A DNA stretch of 64,000 bases from Truepera sp. (lineage in GTDB: Bacteria > Deinococcota > Deinococci > Deinococcales > Trueperaceae): assembly GCA_965218435.1 (NCBI GenBank), contig CBDCKW010000009.1:2208001-2272000 (forward strand), read 5' to 3'. Position numbers and translations under genes: made by a program. The notes below the pieces were generated by a model that had not been told where the DNA came from, did not search any database, and saw only the letters and a list, made by a program, of their open reading frames with translations. Below, in pieces: positions 93 to 64,000 of the stretch (position 1 is its first letter; each line of letters begins with the position of its first letter).

Positions 93-1775
93 CTAAAAGG
101 TAAGCTTTGTCACGCGGTTCTCTTCGCGCCGCGCCGCAAAAAAGTCTCGCAGCAGCCGCTCGGCGTCGCGGGCCAAAACGCCGGAACGGACCTGGGGCTC
201 CCGTTTCCAGGGGTGCATTAAGAGGTCGGCAACCCCGCCTAACGCGCCGTCACGGTGATTGGCTGCGCCGTAAACAATTCGGAGCAGATGGGCGTTTAGG
301 GCTGCGCCCAGACACATCGGGCAGGGCTCGAGCGTAACGTAAAGCGTACACTCCGCTAAGCGCCAGTCGCCCAGCGCGCCGGCTGCTCCCCGCAACGCTT
401 TAAGCTCGGCGTGGGCGGTCGGATCGGCGTCTGAGCGGGTGGTGTTGGCGGCGGCAGCGAGACAGTGCTCACCCCTCACGACCACTGCGCCGACGGGCAC
501 TTCACCCGCTAGAGCGGCCTGCTCAGCCTGGGCCAGCGCCTGCCGCATCCACGAGAGGTCGGGGTCAGTTGCCTGAGCTACCCGCACGTCGGTGGCGACG
601 CCCCCCAACCACAGCACCTCGGACGGCCCTACCGGATCGGTCGCCAGCACGGTGAGTGAATCCCGCTGTTCACGCGGAACTTTACGGTCAACGAGCAGCT
701 CGGCGACCTTTTTACTTCCACCCGGCAAGCGGATACGGTCACCGGATACACGCGTTCTAAAATGAAGGTTTGGAAACGCCGCCAGCTTGCCTAAGTCGAG
801 TTCGGGGCGGAGGTCGGCCAAGTTTGAGTGAGTTAAGTCGGGTAAACCTACAGGTGCGGCAGCCTTTACCAGCTCGAGCCGCCCGTAAGCAACTCGAGCC
901 TCTTGACCTTTGGGAAGTGAAATCCGCGTCGGCTTGGTAGCGTCTAAGCTGCGGCGAAGCGTTTCAATATGGTCCAGGTCGGGGGGCAATTCGGCAGCTT
1001 GCAAAAATGCAGCGAGCGCCGCCCGTTGCACCGCCGGGGGTTGACGACTCAGCTGCGCGGTCCCTAACCCCTCGTCACGAAAAAACCGCTCAGCCTGAGT
1101 TTGCAGTGCCGCGGCCTGGTCACGCTGCAACGTGGCAAACTGAGCTAATTTCGACTTAGCAGCGGGATAACGCGCAGTCAAGACAGGCAGCACCTCATGA
1201 CGAAGCCACGCCCGTGTACGCGCTGGGTCGGTATTGGTTTCGTCCTCCAAAAATGGTTGCTGCAGCGTTTCCAGGTACGTTCTGAGTTGCTGGCGAGAGA
1301 CCCCTAGTAGAGGCCGCACTACCCGGCCACGCCGCGCCGGGACGCCGCCCGCGTAGGCCGCGCCACGTAAGAGTTGCAGCAGGACCGTTTCGGCCTGGTC
1401 GTCTCGGGTGTGTGCGGTCAGCACAACGTCTACGCCGCTGCGTTTGGCGGTGCGGGTTAAAAAACTGTAGCGGAGACGGCGAGCCGCATCTTCTATATTC
1501 CAGCCTTTTTGCGCCGCAATCCGGGCCACGTCTATCCGAACCCCGTGGTAGGGCAGCGCCAGCTTTTCAGCCAGTGCTTGTACAAACCGCGCGTCGTCCG
1601 CCGAGGTTGGTCTCAGCGCGTGGTCTACGTGTGCGACCTCGAGCTGGTACGGCCCCCCCACCAAAAGCCGCAACAACGCTACCGAGTCTCCCCCGCCCGA
1701 GACCGCGACCAGCAGCGTCTTAGCTCGTGGCGCGAGCTGCCCCAAGGTAGCGAAAACAGCCGCAGGCAGGTCCAT
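93..1775 (-). CDS. tilS: tRNA(Ile)-lysidine synthetase fused to a C-terminal TadA-like Zn deaminase
   Basis: SGGGDS PP-loop, AHTRDDQAET; C-terminal HAE...PCPMC; ATG 1775 follows CATAAT (leaderless). Confidence 0.95.
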   Translation of the reverse strand: MDLPAAVFATLGQLAPRAKTLLVAVSGGGDSVALLRLLVGGPYQLEVAHVDHALRPTSADDARFVQALAEKLALPYHGVRIDVARIAAQKGWNIEDAARRLRYSFLTRTAKRSGVDVVLTAHTRDDQAETVLLQLLRGAAYAGGVPARRGRVVRPLLGVSRQQLRTYLETLQQPFLEDETNTDPARTRAWLRHEVLPVLTARYPAAKSKLAQFATLQRDQAAALQTQAERFFRDEGLGTAQLSRQPPAVQRAALAAFLQAAELPPDLDHIETLRRSLDATKPTRISLPKGQEARVAYGRLELVKAAAPVGLPDLTHSNLADLRPELDLGKLAAFPNLHFRTRVSGDRIRLPGGSKKVAELLVDRKVPREQRDSLTVLATDPVGPSEVLWLGGVATDVRVAQATDPDLSWMRQALAQAEQAALAGEVPVGAVVVRGEHCLAAAANTTRSDADPTAHAELKALRGAAGALGDWRLAECTLYVTLEPCPMCLGAALNAHLLRIVYGAANHRDGALGGVADLLMHPWKREPQVRSGVLARDAERLLRDFFAARREENRVTKLTF

Positions 1776-1817
1776 ACCTTCATTATGCCCCACGCCGCCT
1801 AAAGCTATACTTTAGCC

Positions 1818-2987
1818 ATGACTGTCACCCTGATTGTGCTCGATTCCGTGGGCGTCGGCGCATTGCCCGACGCTGCCGACTTCGGTGATACCGGCGCACA
1901 TACGCTGGACCACACCTTACAAAAAACCAAGCGGGCGCTGCCGAACTTTACCGCCCTTGGACTTGGCAACATCGAAGGCGTGGGTTCGCTGCCCAAACCC
2001 GAAACGCCGCTGGCCTCGTATGGGCGGCTGGCGGAAGTGTCCCCCGGTAAAGACACCACGACGGGCCACTGGGAGTTTATGGGCGTCACGCTCGAGCACG
2101 CGTTCAAGACGTTCGCCGAGTTTCCAGATGAGGTGATGCACGCCTTTGACGCGCTGACCGGACGCGGGCACCTCGGCAACGTTCCAGCGTCGGGGACAGC
2201 TATTTTAGACGAGCTGGGCGAAACGCACCTGCAAACAGGCGAGCCCATCGTCTATACGAGCGCGGACAGTGTGTTTCAGATTGCCGCGCATGTGGATAAG
2301 GTACCGCTCGAGACCCTTTACGAATGGTGCGAAGGGGCGCGGAAGCTGCTCCAGGGAGAGAACGCCGTCGCCCGCGTGATCGCTCGGCCCTTCGCCGGGA
2401 CGCCCGGAAACTTCAGGCGTTTGGGCGAAGCAAGGCGCGACTATTCGCTGACGCCGCCCCACGAAACGGTGCTGGATGTGCTCAAAGCGGCAGGCAAAGC
2501 GGTCGTCGGTATCGGCAAAATTCCGGACATCTATAACCATCAGGGCTTTACCGAAGAGGTTCACACCGACTCGAACGAAGACGGCGTAGCTAAAACGCTC
2601 GCGGCGATATACGAACGCCCGGACGGGCTGATTTTTTGCAATCTGGTCGAGTTCGATTCGCTTTACGGTCATCGCCGCGACCCGGAAGGGTACGCAAATG
2701 CGCTGGCAGAAACCGACGTTCGGTTGCCCGAGCTTTTAGAGGCGACCCAACCCGGTGACTGGCTGCTGTTCGTGTCCGACCACGGCAACGACCCGACCTT
2801 TCGGGGTACCGACCACACCCGCGAATACGGACTTTTGCTCGCGTACAGTCCCGGCATTGCTGCAAAAGATTTAGGCACGCGTAGAAGCTTTGCCGATGTG
2901 GGCGCGACCGTCGCCGAGCTTTTAGGCGTTATGTGGGAGGGGAAGGGCTCGAGCTTTGCCCCGCAGCTTTTAGCACTGGAGCGGTAG
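1818..2987 (+). CDS. deoB: phosphopentomutase
   Basis: [35 protein letters not shown] motifs. Confidence 0.96.
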
Positions 2988-3052
2988 ATAAAACGCTACT
3001 CTCTGAAACAACCTTAAAAGGCTGCTACTGGACTACAGCGATTATCGTCAAG

Positions 3053-5110: not shown

Positions 5111-5318
5111 GGTTCCTCCTTGAAGATGCGTTATAACAAGTAGACGCGTAACAAAAACGCCGTAAACGGATAACAATCTCATGAACTCTAACGCGTCCAG
5201 CTAAACTTGCTGAAGCGCACACTACACCCGAAACTGTAAAGCTGTGCTGCTCACCCTAACGGCACACCTTTACGGCACAAAATACGGCGTAAAAAACAGG
5301 CTTTACAGGGCTCGAGCC

Positions 5319-7557: not shown

Positions 7558-7772
7558 CGCAGTGCGCTGGGGAAGTCCGGTGAGAGTCCGGCGCTGTCCC
7601 GCAACGGTAACGTCTGAAACGGTTTGCAGTGTAGTTAGGCGAAGCCCGAATACCGGCGTAGTGACGAAACGTACCCCTGGCGCGGACCAAGGCGGGCGGC
7701 GTGTGCTGTTTCGGCCTTGGGACCGTACAGGCGCGGCCTCTTCTTATTCCGCTTCAGGCTGCCCGAGGAGGC
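7558..7772 (+). ncRNA. Cobalamin riboswitch with SD-sequestering platform
   Basis: GGGGAAGTCCGGTGAGAGTCCGGCGCTGTCCCGCAACGGTAA...AAGCCCGAATACC; promoter TTGACA 7522 / TAAACT 7546; GCCTCTTC (7736-43) pairs with GAGGAGGC (7765-72); leads a cob operon. Confidence 0.9.
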
Positions 7773-7775
7773 ACC

Positions 7776-8684
7776 ATGAAGAGGTTTTTGGTCGCGGTTT
7801 TTTGGTTGGTTTGGTTTAGCTTAGCGGCAGCCACGACGTATCCGTATACCGTCACCGACGATTTAGGCGTTGAGGTCACCCTAAACGCCGAACCTATGCG
7901 CGTCGTAACGATGATTCCGAGTCATACCGAAACGCTCTGCGCCATCGCCGCGTGTGACAAACTCGTCGGGATAGACACGTACAGCAACTTTCCGGCGCGG
8001 GTAGATAAGTTGCCCAAGCTCGGCAGCGCCTTCGAGCCGAACCTCGAGGCCATCGTCGCCCTAAAGCCTGATTTAGTCTTGACCGATGAATCGTCCGACC
8101 TCGCAGGGGCGCTCCGGCAGGTCGGGATTCCTGTGTACGCCGGAACCGCGCAGACGTATGACGAAGTGTTTGAAAAGTTCAAAGTTTTAGGCGAACTGCT
8201 CAACCGGGAAACCCAGGCGGCCCTTCTAAGTGGCCGCGTGCAGGGGAGTATCCGGGCGATCAGTGAGCGGGCGAGCCGGTTAGACCCGACTTCGGTCTAT
8301 TACGAGATTGACCCGACCCCCTACAGCGTCGGGCCGAACTCGTTCATCGGCGTACTCTTAAGCCGCGCCGGGGGCAAAAATATCGTCGAGGCGGGTCTGG
8401 GCGATTTTCCTAAACTTGACCCTGAATACGTCGTTGCGGCTGACCCGGAGGTCATCATCGTCAGTGAACGAGACGCTAAAACGCTGCCGCAACGTTCCGG
8501 TTGGGCCGGGATTGCCGCCGTGCAAAACGGACGTGTCATTCCGACCACGCCGACCTTAGATGACGCTATCAGTCGCCCTGGACCGCGCATCGCCCTAGCC
8601 GTACAGTTTTTTGCGCACGCGCTCCACCCGGATGTTTTCGGCGATGTTTTTGGTGACGTTGCTGTTCCGGCTACTGCCCGCTAG
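7776..8684 (+). CDS. btuF: Cobalamin/corrinoid ABC substrate-binding protein
   Basis: TVTDDLG, PNLEAIVALKPDLV, SRPGPRI; signal peptide; lies behind a B12 riboswitch. Confidence 0.85.
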   Translation: MKRFLVAVFWLVWFSLAAATTYPYTVTDDLGVEVTLNAEPMRVVTMIPSHTETLCAIAACDKLVGIDTYSNFPARVDKLPKLGSAFEPNLEAIVALKPDLVLTDESSDLAGALRQVGIPVYAGTAQTYDEVFEKFKVLGELLNRETQAALLSGRVQGSIRAISERASRLDPTSVYYEIDPTPYSVGPNSFIGVLLSRAGGKNIVEAGLGDFPKLDPEYVVAADPEVIIVSERDAKTLPQRSGWAGIAAVQNGRVIPTTPTLDDAISRPGPRIALAVQFFAHALHPDVFGDVFGDVAVPATAR

Positions 8685-8687
8685 CCT

Positions 8688-9425
8688 GTGCTCCGCGCCC
8701 TGCACGTCGCGTTAGTCTTTCTGACCACGCTGCCCCTGCCACCGATTAAAGCGTGGCAAGAGGGCGACGCGCGGCGGAGCGTGCAGGCGTATCCGCTCGT
8801 CGGACTCGTTTTGGGCGTCATTTTGTGGGCGGCGGCGCGGGGTTTGGGCGCACTGCCGGGGGTGCCGGACGCCTTGCAGGGTGCTCTATTACTCGGAGTG
8901 TGGCTTCTCTTAACCGGGGCACTGCACTTCGACGGATTTTGCGACATGGCGGACGCCGCGTTCTCGAGTAAACCGCCCGAAGTGCGGCAGAAGATTGCCA
9001 AAGACTCACAGCTCGGGGCGTTTGCGCTCGCGGCGGGCGGGGTGCTCTTGCTCGTCAAGGCGGCGGCGCTCGGCAGCGTCACGCCCGCGCTGCTGCTCTT
9101 CGTCCCGCTGCTGAGCCGCACTGTGGTCGTGTTGCCGCTGACGTTCGGACGCACGCACAGCTCGAGCCGACTCGGACGCAGCACCCAACCGAGTCCGGCT
9201 GAAGCGCGGCTACCGTTACTTCTAGGTTTAGCGTTGGGCGTCGGTATCAGTTTATCAACCCAGACCTTGACAGCGTTTTTAGGATTGACAGCTGCGGCGC
9301 TCGTCACCACTCTGCTGCTGGCTTGGTGGCTCGCCAAACGGTTGGGCGGGCTCGGCGGCGACGCTTACGGCGCAATCATCGAAACGAGTGAAGCCCTCAT
9401 GCTGAGCTTGGCGGTGCTTTGGTGA
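8688..9425 (+). CDS. cobS: Adenosylcobinamide-GDP ribazoletransferase
   Basis: TGALHFDGFCDMAD, KD..LGAF, GGLGGDAYGA. Confidence 0.93.
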   Translation: MLRALHVALVFLTTLPLPPIKAWQEGDARRSVQAYPLVGLVLGVILWAAARGLGALPGVPDALQGALLLGVWLLLTGALHFDGFCDMADAAFSSKPPEVRQKIAKDSQLGAFALAAGGVLLLVKAAALGSVTPALLLFVPLLSRTVVVLPLTFGRTHSSSRLGRSTQPSPAEARLPLLLGLALGVGISLSTQTLTAFLGLTAAALVTTLLLAWWLAKRLGGLGGDAYGAIIETSEALMLSLAVLW

Positions 9426-10177
9426 CCGACGCCGTAAACAGCCCCGGTGTAGACATTAAGGCAGACACCAGGGTAACCATTCCGGGGATAACCGTTTCAG
9501 GGGTAACGCTCGAGCGGACGCTGCCGACCCCTGAACGTTGGGATCATCACCTCGTCATTACCTTACCCGAACCTTGCGAGGTGGTCTCGAGTGCTCCCTT
9601 AAACGGCGGTTTCGGCCGCTACCGCGCAGTTGTCAACCGGAGCGTCCCGCAAGATTGGCAGGGTGACAAGGGTGACGTAGACGGCGTGGGCAACGACCCC
9701 GAAACCGCTATGAAACGCTACGTCACGCGTTTGGGGCTCCTCGCCGAAACGACCGTCGGGCTGATCACTGCAATCAGTATGGCCGACCTGCGTTACGCGG
9801 TCGCCGAACGCTCGGGCTGGCGCGTTCACACGCTCCTGACAGCGGGCGTCGGGAACGCAGCAGCGGCGGGCGGGCGGTTCCCACTGGACGGTCTTCCTGC
9901 CGGAACCGTCAATGTGATCGTGCTCCTCGAGGGACATCTAAACCCTTCAGCCCTCATCGGCGCGGTGCAGAGCGCAACCGAAGCGAAGACCGCCGCACTG
10001 CGAGACTTAGGCGTGACAACTCAGTTTGGTGAACCGGCCACCGGAACGACGACCGACACCGTAACGGTCGTTAATCTCAGCACAAAACCCACCAGCCCTT
10101 ACGCCGGACTCGCCACGCCACCCGGATTTCTAGTTGCTGAAACGGTCTACACCGCCCTGTCGGCGGCGCTCAGTTAA
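9422..10177 (+). CDS. cbiZ: Adenosylcobinamide amidohydrolase
   Basis: [29 protein letters not shown]. Confidence 0.9.
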
Positions 10178-10187
10178 AGGAGAGTTT

Positions 10188-10760
10188 ATGTCAGATACTA
10201 AGGCACCCCCGACCAACCGTAAAACTGAAAAAGCGCAGGGCGAACGGCGCGGGCTGGTGATTATCAATACGGGTCACGGCAAGGGCAAAACGACGGCGGC
10301 GCTGGGGCTGCTGCTACGTGCGCACGGGCGCGGCCTCAGAACGCGGCTGTTTCAATTTATCAAGCACGAAGGGGCCAAGTTCGGCGAACACCGCAGCTTA
10401 ACTGCGCTGGGCGTTCCGTTCGCGGGCCTCGGCGACGGCTTTTCGTGGCGCTCACAAGATTTGGATAAGAGTCAGGCGCTCGCCCTAGCCGGGTGGGAGG
10501 AGGCGAAAGCCGCCATTTTGAGCGGTGACTATGATCTAGTCGTGCTCGACGAGGTGACCTATCCGGTGTCATGGGGCTGGCTTGACGTAGATGACGTAGT
10601 AGAGACGCTAAAGGCGCGTCCGGAAAAGATGCACGTCGTTTTGACAGGCCGCGACGCTCACGAAAAACTCGTGGCCGCGGCGGATACCGTTACGGAGATG
10701 AAAAAGATCAAGCACGCCTTCGATGCGGATGTTCCGGCGCAGCGCGGTATCGAGCATTAG
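10188..10760 (+). CDS. cobO: Cob(I)yrinic acid diamide adenosyltransferase
   Basis: [26 protein letters not shown]...GIE. Confidence 0.95.
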
Positions 10761-10770
10761 AGTAGCTGAC

Positions 10771-11139
10771 ATGAACTTTCATCACCGTAAACTGCCCCAG
10801 TTATCTTCTACCTTCACGATTTTGTCGGGACATACGCCGCCGGACGAGGTAGGCTTTCGTTCGGAGCGGTTGCAGATTCTTTACAACCATACCGACGTCG
10901 CCTGGTCTGACGCCGGTTCGCACAAGCATACTGAGAGTGACGAGTGCTTCGTCGTGCTTAAAGGCAGCCTCGAGGTCGAGGTAGAGGGCGTCCGTCATAC
11001 GGTCAGTGAACGCGAGTTTTGCTGTTTCCCCGCCGGGGTTTATCACGCTGTGATCAAGGTACAGCCACCTGTCGAAACCCTGATGATTCGCGCACCCTCG
11101 GTGCAAGACAAGATTTACCGAGAGAGCCGCAGCCCATAA
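10771..11139 (+). CDS. Cupin-domain protein of unknown function
   Basis: HKH...DECFVVLKG...PAGVYH cupin metal-binding motif. Confidence 0.85.
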   Translation: MNFHHRKLPQLSSTFTILSGHTPPDEVGFRSERLQILYNHTDVAWSDAGSHKHTESDECFVVLKGSLEVEVEGVRHTVSEREFCCFPAGVYHAVIKVQPPVETLMIRAPSVQDKIYRESRSP

Positions 11140-12075
11140 ATGCGCTCCGTCCGTGCTGCACTTTTCAGCTTTGGGATAGACGCCTGCTTTGGTGAGCCCC
11201 CAACGCGGTTTCATCCGGTCGTCTGGATGGGGCAGTATTTGGGGCTGTATAAAAAGGTGCAGGGCTGGGGTTCTCCTCAACAAGTCCTTACCGGCGCGGG
11301 GTTCGTCCTCGTCGGTGCGGCGGTGTGCGGCGTGACGGCTTGGGGCGTGCAAAAGGGTTTAGGCCGTCTCCCCCGGCCTGCTCGAGTTATCGGCACCGCC
11401 CTCGTCCTTAAACCGCTCTTTAGTTTTTCTGCACTCTCACGAGCAGGTAACGCCGTAAAAGAGGCGCTCGAGGCCCAAAATTTACCCGAAGCGCGGCGGC
11501 TCTTGGCGTGGCACCTCGTCAGCCGTGACACCGCAGACCTTACGGCGGGTGAGGTGGCGGGCGCAGCTATCTCGTCGCTGGCGGAAAACCTGACCGACAG
11601 CATCGTTGCGCCGCTGGTTTATTTTGCGCTCTTCGGCCTACCCGGAGCGGCGGTTTACCGCTTGGTCAACACCGCCGACGCGGTGCTTGGCTACCGCACG
11701 CCGGAGCTGGAAGACTTCGGCAAAGTTGCGGCTCGCAGCGACGACGCGCTGAACTTCGTTCCGGTGCGGCTGACGGCTGTGCTCCTGCTCGGTGCCCTCA
11801 AGGTCGCCGGGTTACCGGCCCGTAAAAGCTGGAGCGTCATGCTTCAAGACCGTAAACGCACCCCGAGTCCGACCGGCGGTTTGACGATGGCGCTCGTAGC
11901 GGCAGGTCTCGGCGTCAACCTCACGAAGCGCGGCGTTTACACCCTGAACGACACGGGCCGCACGCCGACGGCTGCAGATATAGACCGTACAGGGCGGCTT
12001 ATCAAGCTGACTACCGTTTTAGGTTTCAGTCTTTATGCTTTCGCTGAAGGTTTAAGAGTGTTGCGCCGTGCCTAA
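11140..12075 (+). CDS. cbiB: Adenosylcobinamide-phosphate synthase
   Basis: GEPP..FHPVVWMG, VSRDT, SLAEN..D, YR.VNTADA..GY. Confidence 0.94.
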   Translation: MRSVRAALFSFGIDACFGEPPTRFHPVVWMGQYLGLYKKVQGWGSPQQVLTGAGFVLVGAAVCGVTAWGVQKGLGRLPRPARVIGTALVLKPLFSFSALSRAGNAVKEALEAQNLPEARRLLAWHLVSRDTADLTAGEVAGAAISSLAENLTDSIVAPLVYFALFGLPGAAVYRLVNTADAVLGYRTPELEDFGKVAARSDDALNFVPVRLTAVLLLGALKVAGLPARKSWSVMLQDRKRTPSPTGGLTMALVAAGLGVNLTKRGVYTLNDTGRTPTAADIDRTGRLIKLTTVLGFSLYAFAEGLRVLRRA

Positions 12076-13096
12076 ACCGGTTTTAGCTCTACCACCCTAC
12101 GCGGCGCACGGCGGGCCGGACGGGACGCCCGTAAACATTGACTTTAGCGTCAACAGCAACCCGTTCGGATCGCCGCCAGCCCTCTTAACGCAGCTCAGCA
12201 GGGTTGAGGTCTCGAGTTACCCCGACCCAAATTACCCGGAGGCGCGAACCGTAGCGGCGCAATATCACGGCGTCCCCTTAGAGCAAGTTGTGCTGGGCGG
12301 CGCAGCCGAACTGATCTACCGGTTGTCGGCGTGCTATCTAAAACCCGGCAGACGCGTGCTCGTCGCCTCCCCGAGTTTCGGCGAGTACACGCGGGCGGCG
12401 CACCTTTACGGCGCGGCGGTTTGTCACTGTGACGTTTATGAGCGAGACGTTGACCCGGCTGTAGACACCTTGATTATGGCAATTCAAGATATGAGACCGA
12501 CGCTGGTTTGGCTCTGTCAGCCGAACAATCCGACCGGTCACGCTTGGAGCGCGGGGGCTTTGGCTAGCGTGGCAGACACCTGTCAAGAGTGCGACGCGCT
12601 GCTCGTCATAGACGCGGCGTACCTCGAGCTGAGCATCGCCACCTCAGACCTGCCGGAAACTGCCACCGTACTTCTTCCGCTGACCAAAACCTTTGGGATT
12701 GCCGGTCTCCGCGCCGGTTACGCGCTCGCACCACCGGAGGTAGCCGAAACGCTCCGCCGCGCGGCTCCGCCGTGGCCGGTGAGCACGCCCGCCTCTGCTA
12801 CCGTTTATTGGTGCCGCACTGAAGGGCAAGCGTTCATAGAGAAAACAGTACCGGAACTGCTCGAGCTCCGCAGAACCTTTCAAACCGGTTTGCACACGTT
12901 GGGATTTAAGACTTGGGCGAGTACCTCGAGCTTTTTTCTGATAGATGTCGGGAATGCTGCCGAGTTTACGGCGAGGGCAAAAATGGCCAGGTTCCGGGTG
13001 CGGGACGGCTCGAGCTTCGGTCTGCCCGGTTGTATCCGCTTGGCCGCGCAGCGTAAGGCAGAAAACGAGGCATTTTTACGGTGGCTGGCGTGCTAG
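12068..13096 (+). CDS. cobD: Threonine-phosphate decarboxylase (PLP-dependent, Salmonella CobD-like)
   Basis: HGG, DFSVNSNP, PNNPTG, DAAY, LTK.FGIAGLR.GY; cob operon context. Confidence 0.82.
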   Translation: MPKPVLALPPYAAHGGPDGTPVNIDFSVNSNPFGSPPALLTQLSRVEVSSYPDPNYPEARTVAAQYHGVPLEQVVLGGAAELIYRLSACYLKPGRRVLVASPSFGEYTRAAHLYGAAVCHCDVYERDVDPAVDTLIMAIQDMRPTLVWLCQPNNPTGHAWSAGALASVADTCQECDALLVIDAAYLELSIATSDLPETATVLLPLTKTFGIAGLRAGYALAPPEVAETLRRAAPPWPVSTPASATVYWCRTEGQAFIEKTVPELLELRRTFQTGLHTLGFKTWASTSSFFLIDVGNAAEFTARAKMARFRVRDGSSFGLPGCIRLAAQRKAENEAFLRWLAC

Positions 13097-13109
13097 GGGT
13101 GTTGTCAAA

Positions 13110-13727
13110 ATGCTAGAGCTGTGGCTCGTGCGGCACGGCGAAACGGTGTGGAATTTGGAGGGGCGCGTGCAGGGGTACGGACAAGGTTACCAACAGGGCG
13201 GCGACCCGCCACTCTCGGAAATGGGTCGAGCACAAGCGCAAACGCTCGAGCCCAGGCTTAAGGGAACGTTTACAGCGGTCTACAGCTCCGGTTTACGGCG
13301 AACCACCGAGACGGCGCAGCTCGCGCTCCCTAGCGTAGAGGCCATTCCCGACGCACGTCTGTGCGAACTCAGTTTCGGCGCGTGGGAAGGCAAAACTTGG
13401 GCAGAAGTGGCGGAGACTGACCCCGACGCGCTGGCCGCTTGGTACGCCGATCCTTACGAGCACGCGCCGACAAAGGGCGAAAGGTACGCCGACCTCGAGA
13501 CTCGCGTCCAAACATGGCTGGGAACGTTGCCGAAGGCGGGCCGCGTGCTCGCTTTTACGCATGGTGGCCCTATCCGCGCGGTGCTTTACGGATTGACCGG
13601 TGTTCCGCAGGGGCGAGTGTGGCGGTTTGAGATCGGCCCGGCGAGCCTGACCAAACTCGTCTTGGGCGACGCGGGAGCTATCGTCAAAACGGTCGGAGAC
13701 GTAGCCCATTTAGAGGCGCTGATATAA
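13110..13727 (+). CDS. cobC: Histidine phosphatase, probable alpha-ribazole/adenosylcobalamin phosphatase
   Basis: RHGETVWN, FGAWEG, THGG; cob operon context. Confidence 0.8.
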   Translation: MLELWLVRHGETVWNLEGRVQGYGQGYQQGGDPPLSEMGRAQAQTLEPRLKGTFTAVYSSGLRRTTETAQLALPSVEAIPDARLCELSFGAWEGKTWAEVAETDPDALAAWYADPYEHAPTKGERYADLETRVQTWLGTLPKAGRVLAFTHGGPIRAVLYGLTGVPQGRVWRFEIGPASLTKLVLGDAGAIVKTVGDVAHLEALI

Positions 13728-15736
13728 TGGGCCGAGCTTTGATGGTGCAGGGGTGCAGCTCGAGCGCGGGCAAATCGTATCTGACGGCGGCCTTGTGCCG
13801 CATCTACGCGCGGCGCGGCGTCCGAGTGGCTCCCTTTAAGGCGCAGAACATGAGCAACAATGCGGGCGTGACTCCGGCAGGTTTAGAGATGGGCCGCGCC
13901 CAGCTGACGCAAGCTCGAGCGGCCCGCGTCACACCCGACGTGCGGATGAATCCGGTGCTCATCAAACCCGAGGGCAACACACGGTCGCAGGTCGTCGTGC
14001 TCGGTCGCCGTGACGACGCGGTGGCGCGGCTGCCCTGGACGGAACGTAAAACGGCGCTGTGGCCGGTCGTGCAGGCGTCCTTACACAGTCTCCTAGACGA
14101 GTTCGAGCTGGTCATCCTCGAGGGCGCAGGCAGCCCCGCCGAGGTCAACTTAAAAACGGGCGATATCGTCAATATGCGGGTGGCGCAGGAGGCTCAGGCC
14201 CGCGTCCTCCTCACCGCCGACATCGACCGGGGCGGCGCGTTCGCGCACCTTTTAGGCACCTGGGCGTGTTTGGAGCCGGACGAGCAAGATACTCTTTTAG
14301 GCTTTGTGCTCAACAAGTTTCGCGGTGACCCGGCGCTTTTGGGAGACGGAATGGGGTGGCTCGAGGCTCGCACCGCTGTGCCTACTCTCGGCGTGGTGCC
14401 GTATCTGCCACTCCCGTTACCGGAGGAGGACGCCCATACCCTTCAAGCCGGTGTAAACGCAAAACCCGGATTTAACGTCGCCGTCCTCAAGTTTCCTACG
14501 GTCTCCAACTTCGATGAGTTTGACGCGCTGGCGAACGAACCGGGGGTTTCGCTTCGCTGGACAGATAACCCCGCAGGGCTTTCCGGCGCAGGGCTGATTG
14601 TTTTGCCGGGGTCAAAACACGTTGCAGCGGACGCGGCGTGGCTGGAGCGTACCGGTCTGGCCGAAGCGGTGAAAACGCACGCAGGAGCAGGCACGCCGAT
14701 TTTAGGTGTTTGCGGCGGGTTGCAGCTGCTCGGTGAAACAGTTAGCGACCCGCACGGCCTCGAAGGAGGCGACGTGACAGGATTGGGACTGTTGGAGCTG
14801 GCGACAACCCTCGAGTCCGAAAAAGTGACGCGGCAGACTCGAGCCCAGCTATCAGACGGGACAAGCGTCTCCGGTTACGAGATTCATCATGGCCGCAGCC
14901 ACGCGTGGGGCGAAACGAAGCCGTACTTATCGGACGGACTCGGCTTTCGGCGGGGAACTGTTACGGGCGTTTACCTCCACGGACTTTTTGAAGATACTGC
15001 GTTCCGAACAGCGTTTCTCGGCATTTTAGGCGTTCAAAGCACCGATACTGACCGAGCCGAAGCGTTAGACAAAACGCTTGACGTACTGGCCGACCATGTA
15101 GCAGCGAATCTCGAGCTAGGCAAAATAGACGACGCCGTATTCGGATCACCGCGATCCCAACAGTCACCGCGCTCGCGCCTGATTCTGGTGACCGGCGGGG
15201 TGCGCTCGGGCAAATCGCGTTACGCCGAGGCGTTGGTCACGCACTGGTTAAGTTCAGGCGAGAACGCGCTTTACTTGGCGACGTTACATGCCGGAGACGA
15301 CGAGATGACGCGGCGTATTGCGGCGCACCGGGCGCAGCGGCCTGCTGGCTGGCGGACGCTCGAGACCCCTCTTGCTCCCGCAACTGCTATGCAAGAAAGT
15401 CCTGAAAGGGTTGTGCTCCTCGATTGCCTTTCTGGGCTCGTATCTAACGTGCTGCTCGAGCACGAAGCTAAAGGCGAAGAAACCGTTATTCAGATAGTTC
15501 TAGACGCCGTAACTGAACTCACTGAGGCTGCACGCAAGACCCAAAAAACCGTCGTCATCGTCACCAACGAAGTCGGGAGCGGCGTCGTTCCGGCGTATCC
15601 GCTGGGCCGCCTTTACCGCGACGCGTTAGGGCTCGCCAACGCGCACGTGGCAGCGGCGGCGGACGCGGTAGCCCTGTGCGTCGTCGGCTTGCCGCAAACC
15701 CTTAAAGGTTCACTGCCGGAGGTTTCACTTGACTGA
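13727..15736 (+). CDS. cobQ: Cobyric acid synthase CobQ fused to cobinamide kinase/guanylyltransferase CobU
   Basis: FKAQNMS, EGAGSPAE, GVCGG, GYEIH; C-terminal GGVRSGKS, RIAAH, VTNEVG, YRDALG. Confidence 0.95.
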   Translation: MGRALMVQGCSSSAGKSYLTAALCRIYARRGVRVAPFKAQNMSNNAGVTPAGLEMGRAQLTQARAARVTPDVRMNPVLIKPEGNTRSQVVVLGRRDDAVARLPWTERKTALWPVVQASLHSLLDEFELVILEGAGSPAEVNLKTGDIVNMRVAQEAQARVLLTADIDRGGAFAHLLGTWACLEPDEQDTLLGFVLNKFRGDPALLGDGMGWLEARTAVPTLGVVPYLPLPLPEEDAHTLQAGVNAKPGFNVAVLKFPTVSNFDEFDALANEPGVSLRWTDNPAGLSGAGLIVLPGSKHVAADAAWLERTGLAEAVKTHAGAGTPILGVCGGLQLLGETVSDPHGLEGGDVTGLGLLELATTLESEKVTRQTRAQLSDGTSVSGYEIHHGRSHAWGETKPYLSDGLGFRRGTVTGVYLHGLFEDTAFRTAFLGILGVQSTDTDRAEALDKTLDVLADHVAANLELGKIDDAVFGSPRSQQSPRSRLILVTGGVRSGKSRYAEALVTHWLSSGENALYLATLHAGDDEMTRRIAAHRAQRPAGWRTLETPLAPATAMQESPERVVLLDCLSGLVSNVLLEHEAKGEETVIQIVLDAVTELTEAARKTQKTVVIVTNEVGSGVVPAYPLGRLYRDALGLANAHVAAAADAVALCVVGLPQTLKGSLPEVSLD

Positions 15737-16769
15737 CTTTGACCAGACGATCTCACAGATTCAAAACGTAGACGTAGCAATCTACCAACGAGCGTTGGAA
15801 CGTCACGCTACCTTGACCAAACCACCGGGGAGTTTGGGGCGGCTCGAGCCCCTCGGCGCACGTCTCGCAGCGGTTCAGGGCACCGTCAAACCCGTCATCA
15901 GGAAAAAAGCCGTCGCGGTCTTTGCCGCCGACCACGGCGTTACGGCGTCGGGCGTGTCGGCCTATCCAAAAGAAGTGACCGCCGGGATGGTCCGCAACTT
16001 TCTCGCCGGGGGCGCAGCCATCAATGCCCTCGCCCGGAGCGCCGGGGCTGAGCTGCTCGTCATAGATGTCGGGGTAGACGCCGACTTTGAGCCACACCCA
16101 CGGCTTTGGGAGCGCAAAGTTGCACGCGGTACCCGGAATATGCTCGACAGTCCGGCGATGACCCGTGAGGAGGCCGCCGCCGCGCTTGACGTCGGACTCG
16201 TGGCCGCACAAACGCTCGTTTTACGGGGCGCTAATCTGTTAGCCGGGGGCGAAATGGGCATCGGCAATACGACCGCCGCCGCCGCTCTCACCGCGTTTTT
16301 TACCAAACGTACGGCGGTTGAGGTCACCGGGCGCGGTACAGGCGTTGACGACGCGGGTTTGGTGCATAAAGTCGGTGTGGTCGAAGCGGTCATCACGAAG
16401 CACCAAGACGCAAAACGTCCGTTAGACGCGCTCGCCTGTTTCGGCGGCTTTGAAATCGCGGCGCTGACCGGATTTTACCTGGGGGCGGCAGCGGCCCAAA
16501 CGCCGGTCGTGCTCGACGGCTTTATCTCTACGGCGGCGGCGCTCGTCGCGGTGGCGTTAGCGCCTGCCGTAAAAGATTATCTGTTCGCCTCGCATCTGTC
16601 AGAGGAGCGTGGACACCGGGTTCAACTCGAGTTTTTGGGGCTCGAGCCCCTCTTCGACCTAAACCTCAGGCTCGGTGAAGGCACAGGCGCAGTGCTGGCG
16701 TTCGGGCTGTTAGAGGGTGCGGCTGCGACCCTGACGGAGATGGCGACCTTTGCTGAAGCGTCCCTGTAG
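15729..16769 (+). CDS. cobT: Nicotinate-nucleotide-dimethylbenzimidazole phosphoribosyltransferase
   Basis: LTKPPGSLGRLE, ADHG, GEMGIGNTT, RLGEGTGA. Confidence 0.96.
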   Translation: MTDFDQTISQIQNVDVAIYQRALERHATLTKPPGSLGRLEPLGARLAAVQGTVKPVIRKKAVAVFAADHGVTASGVSAYPKEVTAGMVRNFLAGGAAINALARSAGAELLVIDVGVDADFEPHPRLWERKVARGTRNMLDSPAMTREEAAAALDVGLVAAQTLVLRGANLLAGGEMGIGNTTAAAALTAFFTKRTAVEVTGRGTGVDDAGLVHKVGVVEAVITKHQDAKRPLDALACFGGFEIAALTGFYLGAAAAQTPVVLDGFISTAAALVAVALAPAVKDYLFASHLSEERGHRVQLEFLGLEPLFDLNLRLGEGTGAVLAFGLLEGAAATLTEMATFAEASL

Positions 16770-16844
16770 CTGCTAAAAAAGAGCGCAGCGCACCCTAAGA
16801 ACTCTCAGCAAAAACTCTCAGCTGCGGGTGTTAAACTCAGGGCC

Positions 16845-20817: not shown

Positions 20818-20843
20818 ACCTTCTAACCATCAAGCTCGAGCCG

Positions 20844-22805: not shown

Positions 22806-23372
22806 ATGAGCAAGGTCAACAAAAGCCAATTCGCCATCCTCGGTATTCTCGGACTAGGGCCGCACTCGGGGTACGACATCAAGAAGCTGACCGACCTCAG
22901 CACCCGACACTTTTGGGCCGAGAACTACGGCAGCCTCTACCCGACGCTTAAACGGCTCGAGCAGGCGGGCCTAGCCACCGTCCAGCGTGAGGCGCAAGAC
23001 GGCAAACCCGACCGCAAGGTCTACACCATCACCGAGGCGGGGCGAGAGGTGTTGCAGAGTTGGCTCGAGTCACCTGTCCAAGAAACGCCGCCGCGCAGTG
23101 AACTCTTGCTCAAGCTTTTTTTAGGCCGTCAGACAACTCTCGAGGTCAGCGTCATACATTTGGAGAGGTTCCGAACAGAACAGACCGAACTCATCGTCAC
23201 GTACCAGGGGCTCGAGCGGTGGCTCGAGCTCGAGCAAGCCGGTGACCCCAACCTCCCGTACTGGCTTTTGACCCTCTCTTACGGTCGGGTTCAGGCCGAG
23301 GCGCTTAAAGGGTGGAGCGAGGCGAGCCTCGAGACCTTACAACGCGTCGCCCAAAAGGAGCACGATGACTAA
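22806..23372 (+). CDS. PadR-family regulator
   Basis: HSGYDI, GSLYPTL, KVYTITEAG, LLLKLF; ATATC-n5-GATAT palindrome in the promoter. Confidence 0.93.
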   Translation: MSKVNKSQFAILGILGLGPHSGYDIKKLTDLSTRHFWAENYGSLYPTLKRLEQAGLATVQREAQDGKPDRKVYTITEAGREVLQSWLESPVQETPPRSELLLKLFLGRQTTLEVSVIHLERFRTEQTELIVTYQGLERWLELEQAGDPNLPYWLLTLSYGRVQAEALKGWSEASLETLQRVAQKEHDD

Positions 23373-23898: not shown

Positions 23899-23988
23899 GC
23901 TAGGACACTCTCAGCCTAGGAAATCTTTGAGATAGGTTCTAAAAAGTGGGGCTACCGGCTTATCCTCAGCGAGCTTGGGCTGCAAACG

Positions 23989-24016
23989 CGCCGCGAGTCG
24001 GTCGCGACTCGCGGCG
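23989..24016. terminator. GC-rich hairpin (possible terminator)
   Basis: CGCCGCGAGTCG-GTCG-CGACTCGCGGCG; weak U tract. Confidence 0.5.
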
Positions 24017-24104
24017 GTAATCTTTAACGGTAAGTAACCGTGACGAAGCTCTCCAAAACCCCGTTTGTAAGAAGTTTGTGACAATTCGCGCCTATGCTAA
24101 GACT

Positions 24105-35394: not shown

Positions 35395-35510
35395 GTCGTT
35401 CTCCTCTCACGAGTCCTCGAGACCAGTTATAACAGATTGCAGAAATACGGGTGCGCTCGAGGCTGGGCCTAACGGCAGGGACTTTAGCCAGTTTGCCGCA
35501 CTACCTCGTG

Positions 35511-41488: not shown

Positions 41489-42536
41489 TAAATCATCTGC
41501 GAAATAGCGCCGAAGGAGTCAAAGGACTAAACTAGCAGGATGAAAGCGAGCCGCTTAAAGAGAAAGCCCAAGCATCTGTATAACTTCACAGGTTTAAGCG
41601 TCGAGCAGTTCAAGTTGCTTAGTAAAGCGGTCGAAGTACGCCTTGCCGAACCAAAAGGCACCCAGGGCAAATTACGTCAACGTGCAGTAGGCGGGGGACG
41701 CAAGGCAGAACTAGGGGTAGAGGATCAGGTTTTAGGGGTGCTGCTGTATTACCGTTTGTACCTGACCCAGCTGCTACTAGGCTACTTATTCAACTTGGAT
41801 GATAGTAACGTCAGCCGTTTGATCAGCAAACTTCGACCTGTACTACTTGAGGTTCTCCCCTTACCAGCGCACGAGACAGTTCTTTTTGGTCAAGCTAAAA
41901 GAAAGCGTATCGCAAGCCTAGAAGAACTGCTTGAGCAGCATCCTGAGTTCAAGGAAGTCTTGGTTGATGCTACCGAGCAAGAAATCCAGAAACCCAAAGA
42001 CAAGCAAGAACGCAGAGACAAGTATTCAGGTAAGAAAAAGCGACATACGCTCAAGACCCAAATCACTGCCACCAACACAAAGCTTATCCTTCATGTGACA
42101 CGTTCTTTACCAGGCAAATTCAGCGACGTCAACGTCCTTAGAGGTACCGGGGTGTTACGAGCTTTACCTACGGCTACCGAGGTCCGAGTGGACAAAGGAT
42201 ATGACGGTATTGATAAGGATTTTCCCCATAGAACCTTCCATCAGCCCAGCAAAGCTAGAAGAAACAAACCCCTGGACTTCATCCAGAAATGCCTCAACAA
42301 AGTTCAAAACAGCCTGCGTTTTCCTGTCGAGCACACACTGGCTCACTTGAAACGCTTTAAGCTCTTAGCGGGTATCTACCGAGGCCCAAAAGCTGTTTAT
42401 GATGACACTTTCTTAGCTATCGCGGGGCTTCATAACTTCAGAAAGTTAGATGCTCTGGCTTGGTAAGCCGACTTAAACCCTTTCTCTAAGCCTAGCTACT
42501 TTATTCTGATCGTGTACTTATTTCGCAGATGATTTA
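41489..42536 (+). mobile_element. IS5-family (ISL2-like) insertion sequence
   Basis: Perfect 18-bp inverted repeats TAAATCATCTGCGAAATA (41489-41506) / TATTTCGCAGATGATTTA (42519-42536); the terminal TA may be the target duplication. Confidence 0.92.
41540..42466 (+). CDS. DDE transposase with N-terminal HTH
   Basis: VDATEQ, YSGKKKRHTLK, DKGY, R..VEH...LK. Confidence 0.93.
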   Translation: MKASRLKRKPKHLYNFTGLSVEQFKLLSKAVEVRLAEPKGTQGKLRQRAVGGGRKAELGVEDQVLGVLLYYRLYLTQLLLGYLFNLDDSNVSRLISKLRPVLLEVLPLPAHETVLFGQAKRKRIASLEELLEQHPEFKEVLVDATEQEIQKPKDKQERRDKYSGKKKRHTLKTQITATNTKLILHVTRSLPGKFSDVNVLRGTGVLRALPTATEVRVDKGYDGIDKDFPHRTFHQPSKARRNKPLDFIQKCLNKVQNSLRFPVEHTLAHLKRFKLLAGIYRGPKAVYDDTFLAIAGLHNFRKLDALAW

Positions 42537-48840: not shown

Positions 48841-48921
48841 GAGGGCTAGTATACAGCGGCAACGGGTCGAAAGTGTAGGCTCGAGCCAACCTCGCTCACC
48901 CAAAGAGCTAAAAGGAGACGC

Positions 48922-50838: not shown

Positions 50839-51039
50839 CACACCGACTTTCGTCAAAGCTCGAGGGTTTACGGGGATAATGTTGCGCAAACACAAGAATG
50901 TAAATATAAGAACATGAAGGCGGCAATCAGGGGCACACCTTAGCAAAACTCAGGAATGCTCGAGACCCCAACCCGTAAAATCGGCGGCTACCAGCTGAAC
51001 CGCTGCGAAACAAATCCATATGGTAGTTACGCTAGGCGG

Positions 51040-54535: not shown

Positions 54536-54587
54536 TACTCAAAAATGATTCTTTAGCTCGAGGGTACTTTACGCTTCCAGCTCGCCT

Positions 54588-54623
54588 AAACCCTTGACAG
54601 CCGGTAGACCGTCAAGGGTTTTT
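54588..54623. terminator. Terminator between convergent genes
   Basis: AAACCCTTGAC...GTCAAGGGTTTTT. Confidence 0.7.
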
Positions 54624-54756
54624 GAAATGATTTCTAGAAAACTCGAGTTCGCAGAGGTTTAAGCTGTGCCTATTCGGTCTAGCTTTACGGTTTTACCAAA
54701 ATACTGGCGTTACCGTAGCGACCGTCTGGACACCCGACAAACCGACAGCACGTTCG

Positions 54757-61316: not shown

Positions 61317-61380
61317 AGCTCTAAGCTTAACGGTTTACGGTAAGATTAGCTTAAAGTAGCAAAAGTCGGACCTTACTCGC

Positions 61381-62195: not shown

Positions 62196-62819
62196 ATGAG
62201 CCGCGCGTTGCAACTTCAGCTCTTACCCGAAGGCGGGTATACCGACCTGTTAAATGTCGAAGCAGGTGAGGTGACTCTGTTTCCTGGAGAACCCGATAAC
62301 CTCTACCGCGTCCAAGAAGGTCTAGTACGTATTCATACGGTAGACGATGAAGGCAACGGTCTGACGCTGCGCTACGTGAAACCGGGGGGCTACTTCGGCG
62401 AGGAGGCGCTCGTCGGGTTGCAGCGCCGCTACTTTGCTGAGGCCGTCACCCAGAGCAGCATCGAAGTGATGAGTCCGGCAACGCTGGGGCCGCAGGAAAA
62501 CCTGACCCTGACGACGCACCTCGTCGAGGCGATGGAGCGGCTGTACCGGGCGCTCTACCGGCTTTCGGGCAAACGCCTCAAAGCGCGGATCGCCGCAGAA
62601 CTGCTGGATTTGCAAGACAGCGCGTTAGCGACCCCCGGTAAGAACGGGGAGCCGGTCGTCCATATTACGCACGACGACCTCGCGGCCGCTGTTGGTTCCG
62701 TTCGGGAAACGGTCACCAAGGTCGTCGGCGAACTCTCGAGACAAGGTGCCATTCACGCCGGTTACGGCAAAATCGCGCTCACCAACCTCGAGACGCTCCG
62801 CAAAATTGCCGGTGAATAA
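62196..62819 (+). CDS. ddrI: Crp/Fnr regulator, DdrI/LdrP-like
   Basis: GLVRIHT.DD.GNGLTLRYVKPG..FGEEAL, THD.LAAAVGSVRETVTKVVGELSR, matching Deinococcus DdrI as recalled. Confidence 0.85.
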   Translation: MSRALQLQLLPEGGYTDLLNVEAGEVTLFPGEPDNLYRVQEGLVRIHTVDDEGNGLTLRYVKPGGYFGEEALVGLQRRYFAEAVTQSSIEVMSPATLGPQENLTLTTHLVEAMERLYRALYRLSGKRLKARIAAELLDLQDSALATPGKNGEPVVHITHDDLAAAVGSVRETVTKVVGELSRQGAIHAGYGKIALTNLETLRKIAGE

Positions 62820-62971
62820 GTTGCTCAACTAGAGAGCAGTTTGGAATTCGGTTTTTATTTTCGTGTGCCCACTCTGACGGCTGAGTTTTCAAAAACGCGT
62901 ACACGGTCTCTTTTAGACGTTATAGACGAAGCAACCCAAACTGTAAAAGGTAGCTGTAGTGCGTTCAGATA

Positions 62972-64000
62972 CTAGCACCTAGTCTGATTTCTCCCGCTCC
63001 GTTTGGCGTGGTAGAGGTTTTTGTCGGCTAGAGAGCAAGGTTTCGTAGCTGTCTACCCCGAGATTGTCTGAAATCCCGATGCCGGCGGTGACTTGTAAAC
63101 CCGGTTGTAGTTCACGCCAGGGATAAGCCTCGAGCGCCCGCCTGAATCTTTCGCAGACAAGGGTGGCCACTCGCGCTGACGTTTGTGGCAATAACAAGAC
63201 GAACTCTTCGCCGCCGTAGCGGGCGGCAGTGTCAACCTCCCGAAAGTGCGCCTTAAAAAGCTGCGCGGTAACCCTGAGCACCGCGTCACCGAGCGCGTGT
63301 GAAAAGGTGTCGTTGATCCTTTTGAAGTCGTCGAGGTCGCAGAGCGCCACGCTCAGAGGTTGCCCGAAGCGGCGCGCCCTGGCGAACTCCCGGCTAAGCT
63401 GAACGTCAACATAGCGGCGGTTGTAGAGCCCGGTCAGCGGGTCTTCGCTGGCTTGACGCTCGAGAGCGAACGTTCCCGGTCGGCCTGCTGTAGGGACCGG
63501 GTAAGGCTTTCTAGCTCCGCGTTAGCTTGGGTTAATTCTATATTTTTTAAGCGGTAAAGCTCTTTTTCACGTTCTCGGCGTTCAGTTTCAAAGCTCACCC
63601 GCAAGCTCTGCAGTTTTTGGCTCGAGGCTTCGTTAAAGACTTCCTCTTTAACCTGCGCGTAGCGTTCATAATGGGCGAGTGCTTCGCCGAACTGCTCTTT
63701 TTGCTTGTAGAGTTCGGAAAGCGCGAGGTGCGCCCCGTAGACGCTCTCTTTGACGTTCACCGCGTCGGCGCTCACCAGCGCCGCTGTTAGGACGGTGTGC
63801 GCCTCGGTAAACTTGCGCTGCTCTGTCAGCAGCTGGCCCAACTTGAGCGAAACCGCCGCGCCGCCGCGTTTATCGCCAAGTTTTTGCTTGAGCGCGGCGC
63901 TCTCTCTCAACGCACGCTCGGCTCCTCCAAAGTCGCTTAACCCGGCGTAAACCGTGCCTAGGTTGCCTAAAGCCTCGCTTACCCCCTGCTGATCGTCAAT
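62972..64000 (-). pseudogene. TPR-GGDEF diguanylate cyclase with two frameshifts, 5' end outside the window
   Basis: TPR frame switches to the LERQASEDPLTGLYNRR/GGEEF frame at about 63465; a second switch at about 63032 restores ADKNLYHAKRSGRN. Confidence 0.85.

Follow-up and report, generated by a model that had tools for sequence, protein, structure and literature searches.

Highly iterated palindromes and related systems

To our knowledge, the highly iterated palindrome HIP1 (GCGATCGC) of cyanobacteria has been without a settled explanation for 30 years. HIP1 and the alternate HIPs are palindromes that occur at 0.5-6 per kb in all reading frames and between genes, are conserved beyond their codons and are distributed lineage-wide with exceptions, in association with orphan methylases (PMC4390886, PMC5861425). 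A saturating ratchet, which predicts saturation of HIP1 density, has been proposed as their origin (PMC4390886), as has weak selection on protein-binding sites (PMC5861425).

Here we analysed CTCGAG in a window of 64,000 nucleotides from a Truepera-like genome (G000), in the whole genome and in its relatives. Contigs of public runs, possibly from the source sample, also contain the stretch. CTCGAG shares the above traits, the association with an orphan methylase being putative in this genome, but it is a 6-bp word in another phylum. HIP1 proper is the cyanobacterial GCGATCGC that goes with methylases for GATC and CGATCG, and the word found here differs. Relatives carry the methyl mark as m6A within the word as a whole, whereas HIP1 carries m5C in a shorter word inside it. 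For CTCGAG, we also measured a short-range repulsion and a contrast between genomes with and without mutS/mutL (described below).

The Dam/GATC-MutHLS system, as outlined in a section of PMC4390886, likewise combines an m6A palindrome (here, m6A seen in relatives), an orphan methylase and MutS/MutL. In clear contrast to GATC, CTCGAG is strongly over-represented and shows no drop of divergence near its sites. MutH has been reported to be confined to gamma-proteobacteria. The uptake sequences of Neisseria and Pasteurellaceae, in the part of PMC2397512 that deals with them, are similar in their thousands of conserved copies and in a spacing tied to tract length, whereas CTCGAG is a short palindrome, lies mostly in coding DNA, and shows little excess between convergent genes (2.4 vs 1.9 per kb) and no enrichment in core genes (0.51 vs 0.56 of Leu-Glu pairs). 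The same word is the target of XhoI/PaeR7I (PF04555) and of a Nocardia orphan methylase (PMC4752239), but restriction sites are avoided and CTCGAG is enriched. A literature search, with subscription journals and REBASE outside its scope, returned no report of CTCGAG excess in Deinococcota, and none was reported in PMC4390886, PMC5861425, PMC13756078 and PMC4060949, in which CTCGAG was looked up.

Abundance of CTCGAG in the window and genome

CTCGAG is the commonest hexamer of the window, with 151 copies. Base composition predicts 20.1, a Markov-2 model 27 and a Markov-3 model 41. The initial annotation had estimated about 150 against 20 and had described the near-misses CTCGAA and TTCGAG as far rarer; these number 6 and 11, respectively. 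The individual sites it listed in off-frame, tandem and intergenic positions were all located as described (Table 1), and 17 sites fall outside gene calls, including all eight of the named intergenic ones.

Table 1. Positions of the CTCGAG set, of individually named sites and of two loci outside the window
Feature	Position	Strand	Remark
CTCGAG set, 151 dispersed copies	327..63626	.	count; first 327, last 63621
NNC-TCG-AGN site (Ser-Ser) in ORF 13727-15736	13759..13764	.	
NCT-CGA-GNN site (Ala-Arg, rare CGA codon)	13914..13919	.	
Tandem CTCGAG pair	23223..23234	.	close pairs rarer than chance genome-wide
Intergenic CTCGAG	5311..5316	.	
Intergenic CTCGAG	20835..20840	.	
Two intergenic CTCGAG (35416, 35456)	35416..35461	.	
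Intergenic CTCGAG	48880..48885	.	
Intergenic CTCGAG	50959..50964	.	
Two intergenic CTCGAG (54557, 54642)	54557..54647	.	
P0001, orphan adenine methylase	C9:3672240-3673922		outside window
mutS-mutL	C9:2474335-2478527		outside window

The genome contains 9,883 copies (approximately 1 per 470 bases; 2,056 per Mb). CTCGAG is the top hexamer genome-wide, with an observed/expected ratio (O/E) of 5.2 in the Markov-2 model; the next palindrome has 1.13, and nearly all palindromes other than CTCGAG are avoided (CGATCG, 0.15; GATC, 0.61). As in the HIP class, the word stands far above its Markov expectation and at the top of its length class. Its O/E is lower than that of the octamer HIP1 (15-300), whereas its density is inside the HIP1 range (300-2,700 per Mb). 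When the word was masked from the model, O/E was 7-9, and 9.8 between genes, where none of its nine one-base variants was enriched (0.74-1.15). The codon pair CTC-GAA is approximately 2.7-fold below expectation. Other degenerate palindromes, GTCGAT among them, are likewise avoided, and the depletion is ambiguous as a sign of non-reversibility. The frequency of Leu-Glu itself is raised (O/E 1.25). A library or assembly artefact is unlikely because the pattern is present in many independent genomes.

The density is uniform along the chromosome, whereas in Nocardia the sites are concentrated in the region of the origin (PMC4752239). Tests for origin clustering, strand bias, a replichore gradient and an effect of position in the gene were each negative. 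The initial annotation had also raised periodicity, and here nothing convincing emerged: a simple spectrum of approximately 1,970 frequencies, which differs from the method of PMC5861425, gave peaks at 3.4 kb (11.8 times the mean) and 72 kb (9.2 times), near the chance maximum. CTCGAG differs from HIP1 in showing no convincing 10-90 kb period in this simple spectrum.

Enrichment in all reading frames

In the 63 genes of the window, the three frames hold 93, 11 and 25 sites, compared with 30.5, 1.3 and 3.8 after within-gene synonymous shuffles. The corresponding genome-wide O/E values are 3.2, 7.2 and 5.1, and fixing the next base as well gives 2.6, 8.9 and 5.2. In short non-coding stretches, 768 copies were counted where 116 were expected. 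The Leu-Glu frame accounts for 78% of coding sites; CGA makes up 42% of Arg codons in the NCT-CGA-GNN context and 5-6% elsewhere. The excess therefore survives codon-preserving shuffles in all three frames and extends to non-coding DNA, as is typical of the HIP class, and these off-frame and non-coding sites rule out Leu-Glu codon bias alone.

Mutual repulsion and conservation of sites

CTCGAG copies avoid each other within approximately 400 bases. The log-odds that a Leu-Glu pair is written as CTCGAG change per neighbouring site by -0.50 at 6-50 bp, -0.26 at 50-100 bp, -0.20 at 100-200 bp and -0.11 at 200-400 bp, with a change of about 0 at greater distances (permutation null, 0 ± 0.05). The profile was the same for neighbours in another frame or in intergenic DNA, and repulsion at 150-400 bp was of similar size across gene borders. 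Non-site Leu-Glu pairs as neighbours exerted no repulsion below 200 bp, and none of eight control hexamers showed a profile like that of CTCGAG. At 0.5-1 kb the sites are under-dispersed (variance/mean 0.88, compared with 1.02-1.27 for controls). Repulsion was replicated in the congeners G005 and G004 and partly in the sister family (f5/g36, at 6-50 bp); it was not detected in the small f4, f3, f5/g40 or mixed samples, the f4 and f5 tests resting on 110-120 kb. Mutual repulsion over such distances excludes a plain compositional bias.

The sites are more conserved than the same codons elsewhere, as in the HIP class. The synonymous gain and loss proposed for inspection in the initial annotation gave, between orthologs, a loss of 0.05 for sites and 0.28 for the control context, the same in both comparisons, and a gain of 1.05-1.25 against 0.42-0.46, the confidence intervals for gain overlapping the control. 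Of the eligible sites, 69 of 73 in one comparison and 44 of 45 in the other retained their Ser TCG codon. Where a neighbour site is shared, loss is higher and gain is lower, with intervals that overlap, and compensatory turnover was seen at 60-150 bp (p ~0.02). Four-fold synonymous divergence was flat from 8 to 3000 bp around the sites in two comparisons, with residuals mostly within ±0.01; because divergence is high (D = 0.45-0.47), small effects would escape. The flat profile argues that CTCGAG is not an essential short-range strand signal.

Methylases and nucleases

The association with methylases suggested in the initial annotation holds in part. According to SMRT data, CTCGAG carries m6A in three Thermales only, Marinithermus hydrothermalis, Meiothermus ruber and M. 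chliarophilus, for which no cognate nuclease is listed (PMC4752239, S3 table). G000 has just one candidate enzyme, P0001, and a comparison that did not extend to the D12-family hits revealed no methylase present across the extreme family f5. P0001 is a persistent orphan m6A enzyme with CTCGAG as its putative target; orthologs are present in 21 of 36 Trueperaceae, and it adjoins dnaG in 8 of 15 annotated loci. At 72 homolog loci outside Deinococcota, CTCGAG O/E was 0.97, which was uninformative as to its target. A lead from its partner nuclease to XhoI (Atlas lead 0.95, from a family on 13% of members), together with a short common motif of 8 bits, did not establish the target, the profile-profile probability being 0.5%. 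A PDB search with P0001 returned no match, and an in-place swap for PaeR7I-type enzymes was not seen in G029 and G032.

Neither an XhoI-family nor a partner nuclease was found in G000, the same XhoI-family search being positive in 3 of 61 genomes. An XhoI/PaeR7I type II restriction-modification system in G000 was rejected accordingly, as no PF04555 nuclease was found. Six relatives carry strong matches to PaeR7I-type methylases, whose plasmid homologs pair with PF04555.

Distribution across relatives

Among 36 Trueperaceae, CTCGAG O/E is at least 3 in 15 of the 20 genomes with MutL and in none of the 16 without it, all of which have NucS. Codon-controlled O/E by frame is 2.2, 6.8 and 3.6 with MutL but 1.2, 1.05 and 0.95 without. 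Six MutL-less genomes retain the P0001 family, yet their O/E is 1.1-2.6. The Truepera-like genome itself has both mutS and mutL (Table 1). The enrichment across relatives, frames and non-coding DNA, the low loss and the repulsion agree with the earlier description of a lineage-wide, HIP1-like word that is held in place. There are exceptions in both directions. Five MutL-bearing Trueperaceae have O/E below 3, and family f2 has MutS/MutL in six of six genomes yet O/E of 0.2-1.0. Conversely, four MutL-less f3 genomes still reach a Markov O/E of 2.7-3.5, with a 1.8-fold excess in the Leu-Glu frame. A tree of 27 methylases suggests that MutL was probably lost just once or twice to give the MutL-less Trueperaceae. 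The association has few independent losses behind it and GC as a confounder, and the MutL effect is not significant with GC in the model (t = 1.6).

Possible origin of the CTCGAG excess

Any explanation has to cover an excess that extends over every frame and intergenic DNA, the reduced loss, the repulsion and the co-distribution with mutS/mutL. The initial annotation had offered three mechanisms without a choice; this co-distribution favours the repair-linked one, without proof. Our best reading, which we hold tentatively, is a repair-driven accumulation of CTCGAG with local saturation. CTCGAG would act as a DNA-level, sequence-specific mark with diminishing returns, favoured where no other site lies within approximately 400 bp. 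MutS/MutL mismatch repair may favour the strand carrying CTCGAG, the probable reason being methylation of its adenine by an orphan enzyme, and the mismatches could be replication errors or heteroduplexes between genome copies. Near-misses would thereby be turned into sites and existing sites protected, and a nearby site that already directs repair would damp the bias. Such a process would correspond to the saturating ratchet suggested for HIP1 in PMC4390886, except that both the palindrome and its methyl mark differ. The effect of neighbours on both loss and gain differs from a pure replication ratchet, which predicts an effect on gain only. A narrower version is rather unlikely: in Deinococcales outside the Deinococcus-like family, CTCGAG would be a sequence- or m6A-dependent cue that steers the strand choice of MutS/MutL without MutH, with three unrelated orphan methylase families as possible writers and the spacing as a repair-tract footprint.

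An unlikely alternative is a drive by DNA uptake or recombination, in which (methylated) fragments bearing CTCGAG are preferred and a second site per fragment adds little, producing both spread and spacing. Known uptake sequences are longer than CTCGAG and not palindromic, which counts against it, as does the lack of core-gene enrichment. Reduced loss and repulsion are compatible with such a drive, G000 has a ComEC-family gene, and CTCGAG density is higher on two small plasmid-like contigs (5.2 and 3.2 per kb) than on the chromosome (2.1 per kb). HIP1 raises transformation, an effect that depends on methylation (part of 10.1101/2024.09.10.611283), and the spacing of neisserial uptake sequences corresponds to how long the conversion fragments are (part of PMC2397512). 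The mutS/mutL association is left unaccounted for, unless heteroduplex repair is the biased step, in which case uptake merges with the repair-driven reading.

Weak selection for evenly spaced sites of a chromosome-organising or repair-loading protein also appears improbable. It expects lower loss together with higher gain, in a ratio that ortholog rates would put at about 16-fold odds, and it fits the under-dispersion, the compensatory turnover and the uniform chromosomal density; needing no methylase, it would suit family f5. However, its reader protein is only putative, no convincing periodicity was seen, the plasmid-like contigs are denser, and only chance would link the loss of mutS/mutL to that of the enrichment.

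Ordinary neighbour-dependent mutation or codon-pair bias is very unlikely. It could draw on the dominance of the Leu-Glu frame and on the order-4 (maximal-order) Markov model, in which the window O/E is only 1.18 (151 vs 128), but this excess is small because the 5-mers mostly come from CTCGAG itself. It is adequate for the GC-rich MutL-less relatives (O/E ~1.2). For the Truepera-like genome it is contradicted by the one-base variants, by off-frame O/E values of 5-9 and by a repulsion over 400 bp that local context cannot yield. Least probable of all is very-short-patch repair at m5C-modified CTCGAG, in which T:G to C:G correction builds up the word: the C-to-T variants are mildly depleted between genes (TTCGAG 0.81, CTTGAG 0.74, CCCGAG 1.07), CTC-GAA is rare and m5C CTCGAG methylases are accompanied by Vsr in other phyla, but just 2 of 61 genomes, G000 not among them, yielded a Vsr, the transition variants of family f5 are mostly enriched, the CTCGAA depletion has its parallels in other degenerate palindromes, and repulsion is not predicted.

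Implications

With CTCGAG, the puzzle of highly iterated palindromes gains a second example, in a phylum other than cyanobacteria. The word distorts codon-pair usage and Leu-Glu frequency, and its excess predicts XhoI resistance or heavy cutting, depending on methylation. Families with 6 sites per kb, a word-depleted family and clades in which NucS replaces MutS/MutL provide natural contrasts. Together with tractable hosts, the quantitative repulsion signature (~400 bp) allows repair, uptake and chromosome-structure models to be separated. If true, the MutS/MutL cue would be the first direct handle on the origin of highly iterated palindromes, testable in Thermus and Meiothermus.

CTCGAG as an iterated palindrome

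CTCGAG is a real, genome-wide palindrome of the HIP class (highly iterated palindromes such as cyanobacterial HIP1) outside the cyanobacteria. The initial annotation had estimated about 150 sites in the window against about 20 expected; the counts are 151 and 20 (base composition), and Markov-2/3 models give 27–41 expected. In the whole genome (G000, 4.8 Mb), 9,883 copies make CTCGAG the most over-represented hexamer (observed/expected, O/E, 5.2; runner-up among the 64 palindromes, 1.13), with a flat density on the main contig (86–131 per 50 kb). Synonymous within-gene shuffles of 4,081 genes from our own gene calls gave frame-by-frame O/E values of 3.2, 7.2, and 5.1, which shows that coding does not cause the excess. 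The value was 6.6 in short non-coding stretches and 9.8 in intergenic DNA under a model trained with the word masked. The nine one-base variants are unenriched under that model (0.74–1.15), so that the effect is confined to the complete hexamer. Leu-Glu pairs are raised (1.25) at the cost of Val-Glu, Ile-Glu, and Leu-Asp (0.81–0.90). Origin, strand, and position in the gene had no effect on density in G000, and its two EF-Tu and 45 tRNA genes contain no CTCGAG. Our literature search, of limited coverage, found no report of CTCGAG excess in Deinococcota. CTCGAG in honey bee appears in PMC3903499; the literature considered also includes PMC5861425, PMC2397512, PMC13756078, PMC5290159, PMC4060949, PMC8112702, and 10.1101/2024.09.10.611283.

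Most other 6-bp palindromes are very strongly avoided in G000 (GGCGCC 0.02, GGGCCC 0.03, TTTAAA 0.04, AGGCCT 0.07), and RGATCY is likewise avoided genome-wide. CTCGAG is densest (5.2 and 3.2 per kb) on the small plasmid-like contigs C6 and C8, which contain neither GGCGCC nor GCCGGC; in the assembly, these contigs amount to about 1.6 and 2 copies in tandem. TTA is unusually frequent for Leu ahead of GAN codons (1,086 of 2,782 Leu-GAA pairs versus 11% overall).

Mutual repulsion and turnover of sites

The main new result is a mutual repulsion of sites, which local mutation context cannot cause; some process favours coverage by CTCGAG over count. Among 9,885 Leu-Glu pairs of the G000 chromosome, the share spelled CTCGAG is 0.32 with another site at 6–12 bp and climbs to about 0.63 at distances above 400 bp. 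For each neighbouring site, the log-odds drop by 0.50 at 6–50 bp, 0.26 at 50–100 bp, 0.20 at 100–200 bp, and 0.11 at 200–400 bp; sites farther out have no such effect. Intergenic neighbours and those in other frames repel equally. At 150–400 bp, the effect is about −0.10 regardless of whether the neighbour shares the gene, lies in a different one, or is intergenic; the opposite-strand class alone is not significant in this range. Non-site Leu-Glu pairs showed no repulsion below 200 bp and small negative terms at 200–800 bp, none of eight control hexamers had a similar profile (GTCGAG alone had one negative term, at 6–50 bp), and permutation reduced the repulsion to zero. The repulsion was replicated in the congeners G005 and G004 and, at 6–50 bp, in f5/g36, from a sister family; no repulsion was detected in samples from f5/g40, f4, f3, and further Trueperaceae, which were small or mixed.

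Orthologs were compared from about 400 kb of each congener (284 from G005 and 242 from G004). Of the places where the word is attainable by a synonymous change, 96–99% have CTCGAG. In two-state estimates, its loss is firmly reduced (0.05, 0.02–0.11, versus 0.28 in control context), and a raised gain is only suggestive (1.05–1.25, 0.5–2.5, versus 0.42–0.46). Amino-acid conservation at the sites is barely raised (0.76 versus 0.73); therefore, the force on CTCGAG is weak.

Distribution and mismatch repair

CTCGAG was counted in the whole genomes of 60 relatives, and the counts were scaled with Markov models built on 3–400 kb samples; the resulting O/E values were 0.9–19.5 in Trueperaceae, 9.5–20 in f5 (4.6–6.5 sites per kb), 2.3–6.7 in f4, 2.7–4.0 in f3, and 0.2–1.0 in f2. 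Judging in part by size and GC, we tentatively take f2, f3, and f4 to be Deinococcus-like, Marinithermaceae-like, and Thermaceae-like. G051 groups with a Meiothermus record. Six f5 genomes (G040, G044, G048, G052, G056, and G060) contain 23,000–28,000 CTCGAG but just 4–24 GAGCTC each.

MutL and MutS matches are missing in 16 of 36 Trueperaceae, all 16 of which have NucS; inside this single family, one mismatch-repair system has apparently been exchanged for another. An O/E of at least 3 was found in none of these 16 versus 15 of the 20 with MutL, a contrast whose p-values overstate because related genomes are not independent; loss probably happened once or twice in Trueperaceae and once in f3. 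Codon-controlled off-frame O/E values (58 of 60 genomes) were 6.8 and 3.6 in MutL-bearing genomes and 1.05 and 0.95 in MutL-less ones. Against a MutL link, GC accounts for much of the effect (MutL t = 1.6), the four MutL-less f3 genomes retain a 1.8-fold Leu-Glu-frame excess, and f2 has MutS/MutL yet no enrichment. Searches for MutS_I, MutL_C, and NucS_C gave no match in the 99%-complete f3 genomes G038, G046, G054, and G058.

Methylases and nucleases

In the S3 table of PMC4752239, CTCGAG m6A (94–99.5% detected, no cognate nuclease) is listed for Marinithermus hydrothermalis, Meiothermus ruber, and M. chliarophilus and not for M. silvanus. Three gamma-class methylase families were found among relatives: P0001-like (21 of 36 Trueperaceae and G051), PaeR7I-like (six strong matches; plasmid homologs pair with PF04555), and TaqI-like (four). 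G000 has only P0001, a 560-aa NPPF enzyme and candidate for CTCGAG, whose orthologs adjoin dnaG in 8 of 15 annotated loci; the partner nuclease of its homologs (see table) is absent from G000. Three MutL-bearing Trueperaceae without P0001 have the PaeR7I type in its stead, a hint that both types may serve one site. A comparison of methylases outside the D12 family found none shared across f5.

At loci L047 (G050) and L048 (G038), an XhoI-family nuclease is paired with an SPPY beta-class, not gamma-class, methylase. In samples of G039, G043, and G055, which have TaqI-like methylases, G follows CTCGA in 89–100% versus 0–14% for TCGA after other bases. Locus L152, in a record titled Myxococcota, has a CTCGAG O/E of 5.4 around a P0001 homolog; the contig may be mis-binned, or a further lineage may share the CTCGAG excess.

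Features and genomes of note
Feature	Location	Remark
Nuclease-like protein, 222 aa, no Pfam family	L016:866-1534 (G005)	after P0001 ortholog; related proteins at 51 of 111 P0001-homolog loci
PaeR7I-type methylase, then frameshifted XhoI-family nuclease	L051:5830-8300 (G001)	
Type III-like modification gene split into two ORFs	G000:C9:3165896-3168971	
Gene run, presumably cobalamin biosynthesis	window 7700-16800	
ORF, presumably transposase-like	window 41540-42466	several copies in genome
Trueperaceae without mutS/mutL matches, with nucS	G007, G010, G011, G013-G016, G018-G020, G024, G026, G028, G030, G031, G033	

Possible mechanisms

We favour a repair-biased accumulation of CTCGAG with local saturation, at somewhat below even probability. 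PMC4390886 proposes a repair ratchet for HIP1 and predicts saturation near one site per kb; our spacing and mutS/mutL results fit its logic, with a different word and mark. Synonymous divergence around the sites is flat, which argues that CTCGAG is not an essential strand signal and that the repair bias would hence act on mismatches inside or adjoining the word. The same spacing is predicted by an uptake or recombination drive that spreads CTCGAG, which we regard as unlikely, and by selection for spaced binding sites, of similarly low probability. Compositional bias is very improbable and largely excluded for G000, the repulsion profile being beyond the reach of local mutation context, and a build-up by very-short-patch repair is slightly less credible still and also largely excluded there, as G000 lacks Vsr.
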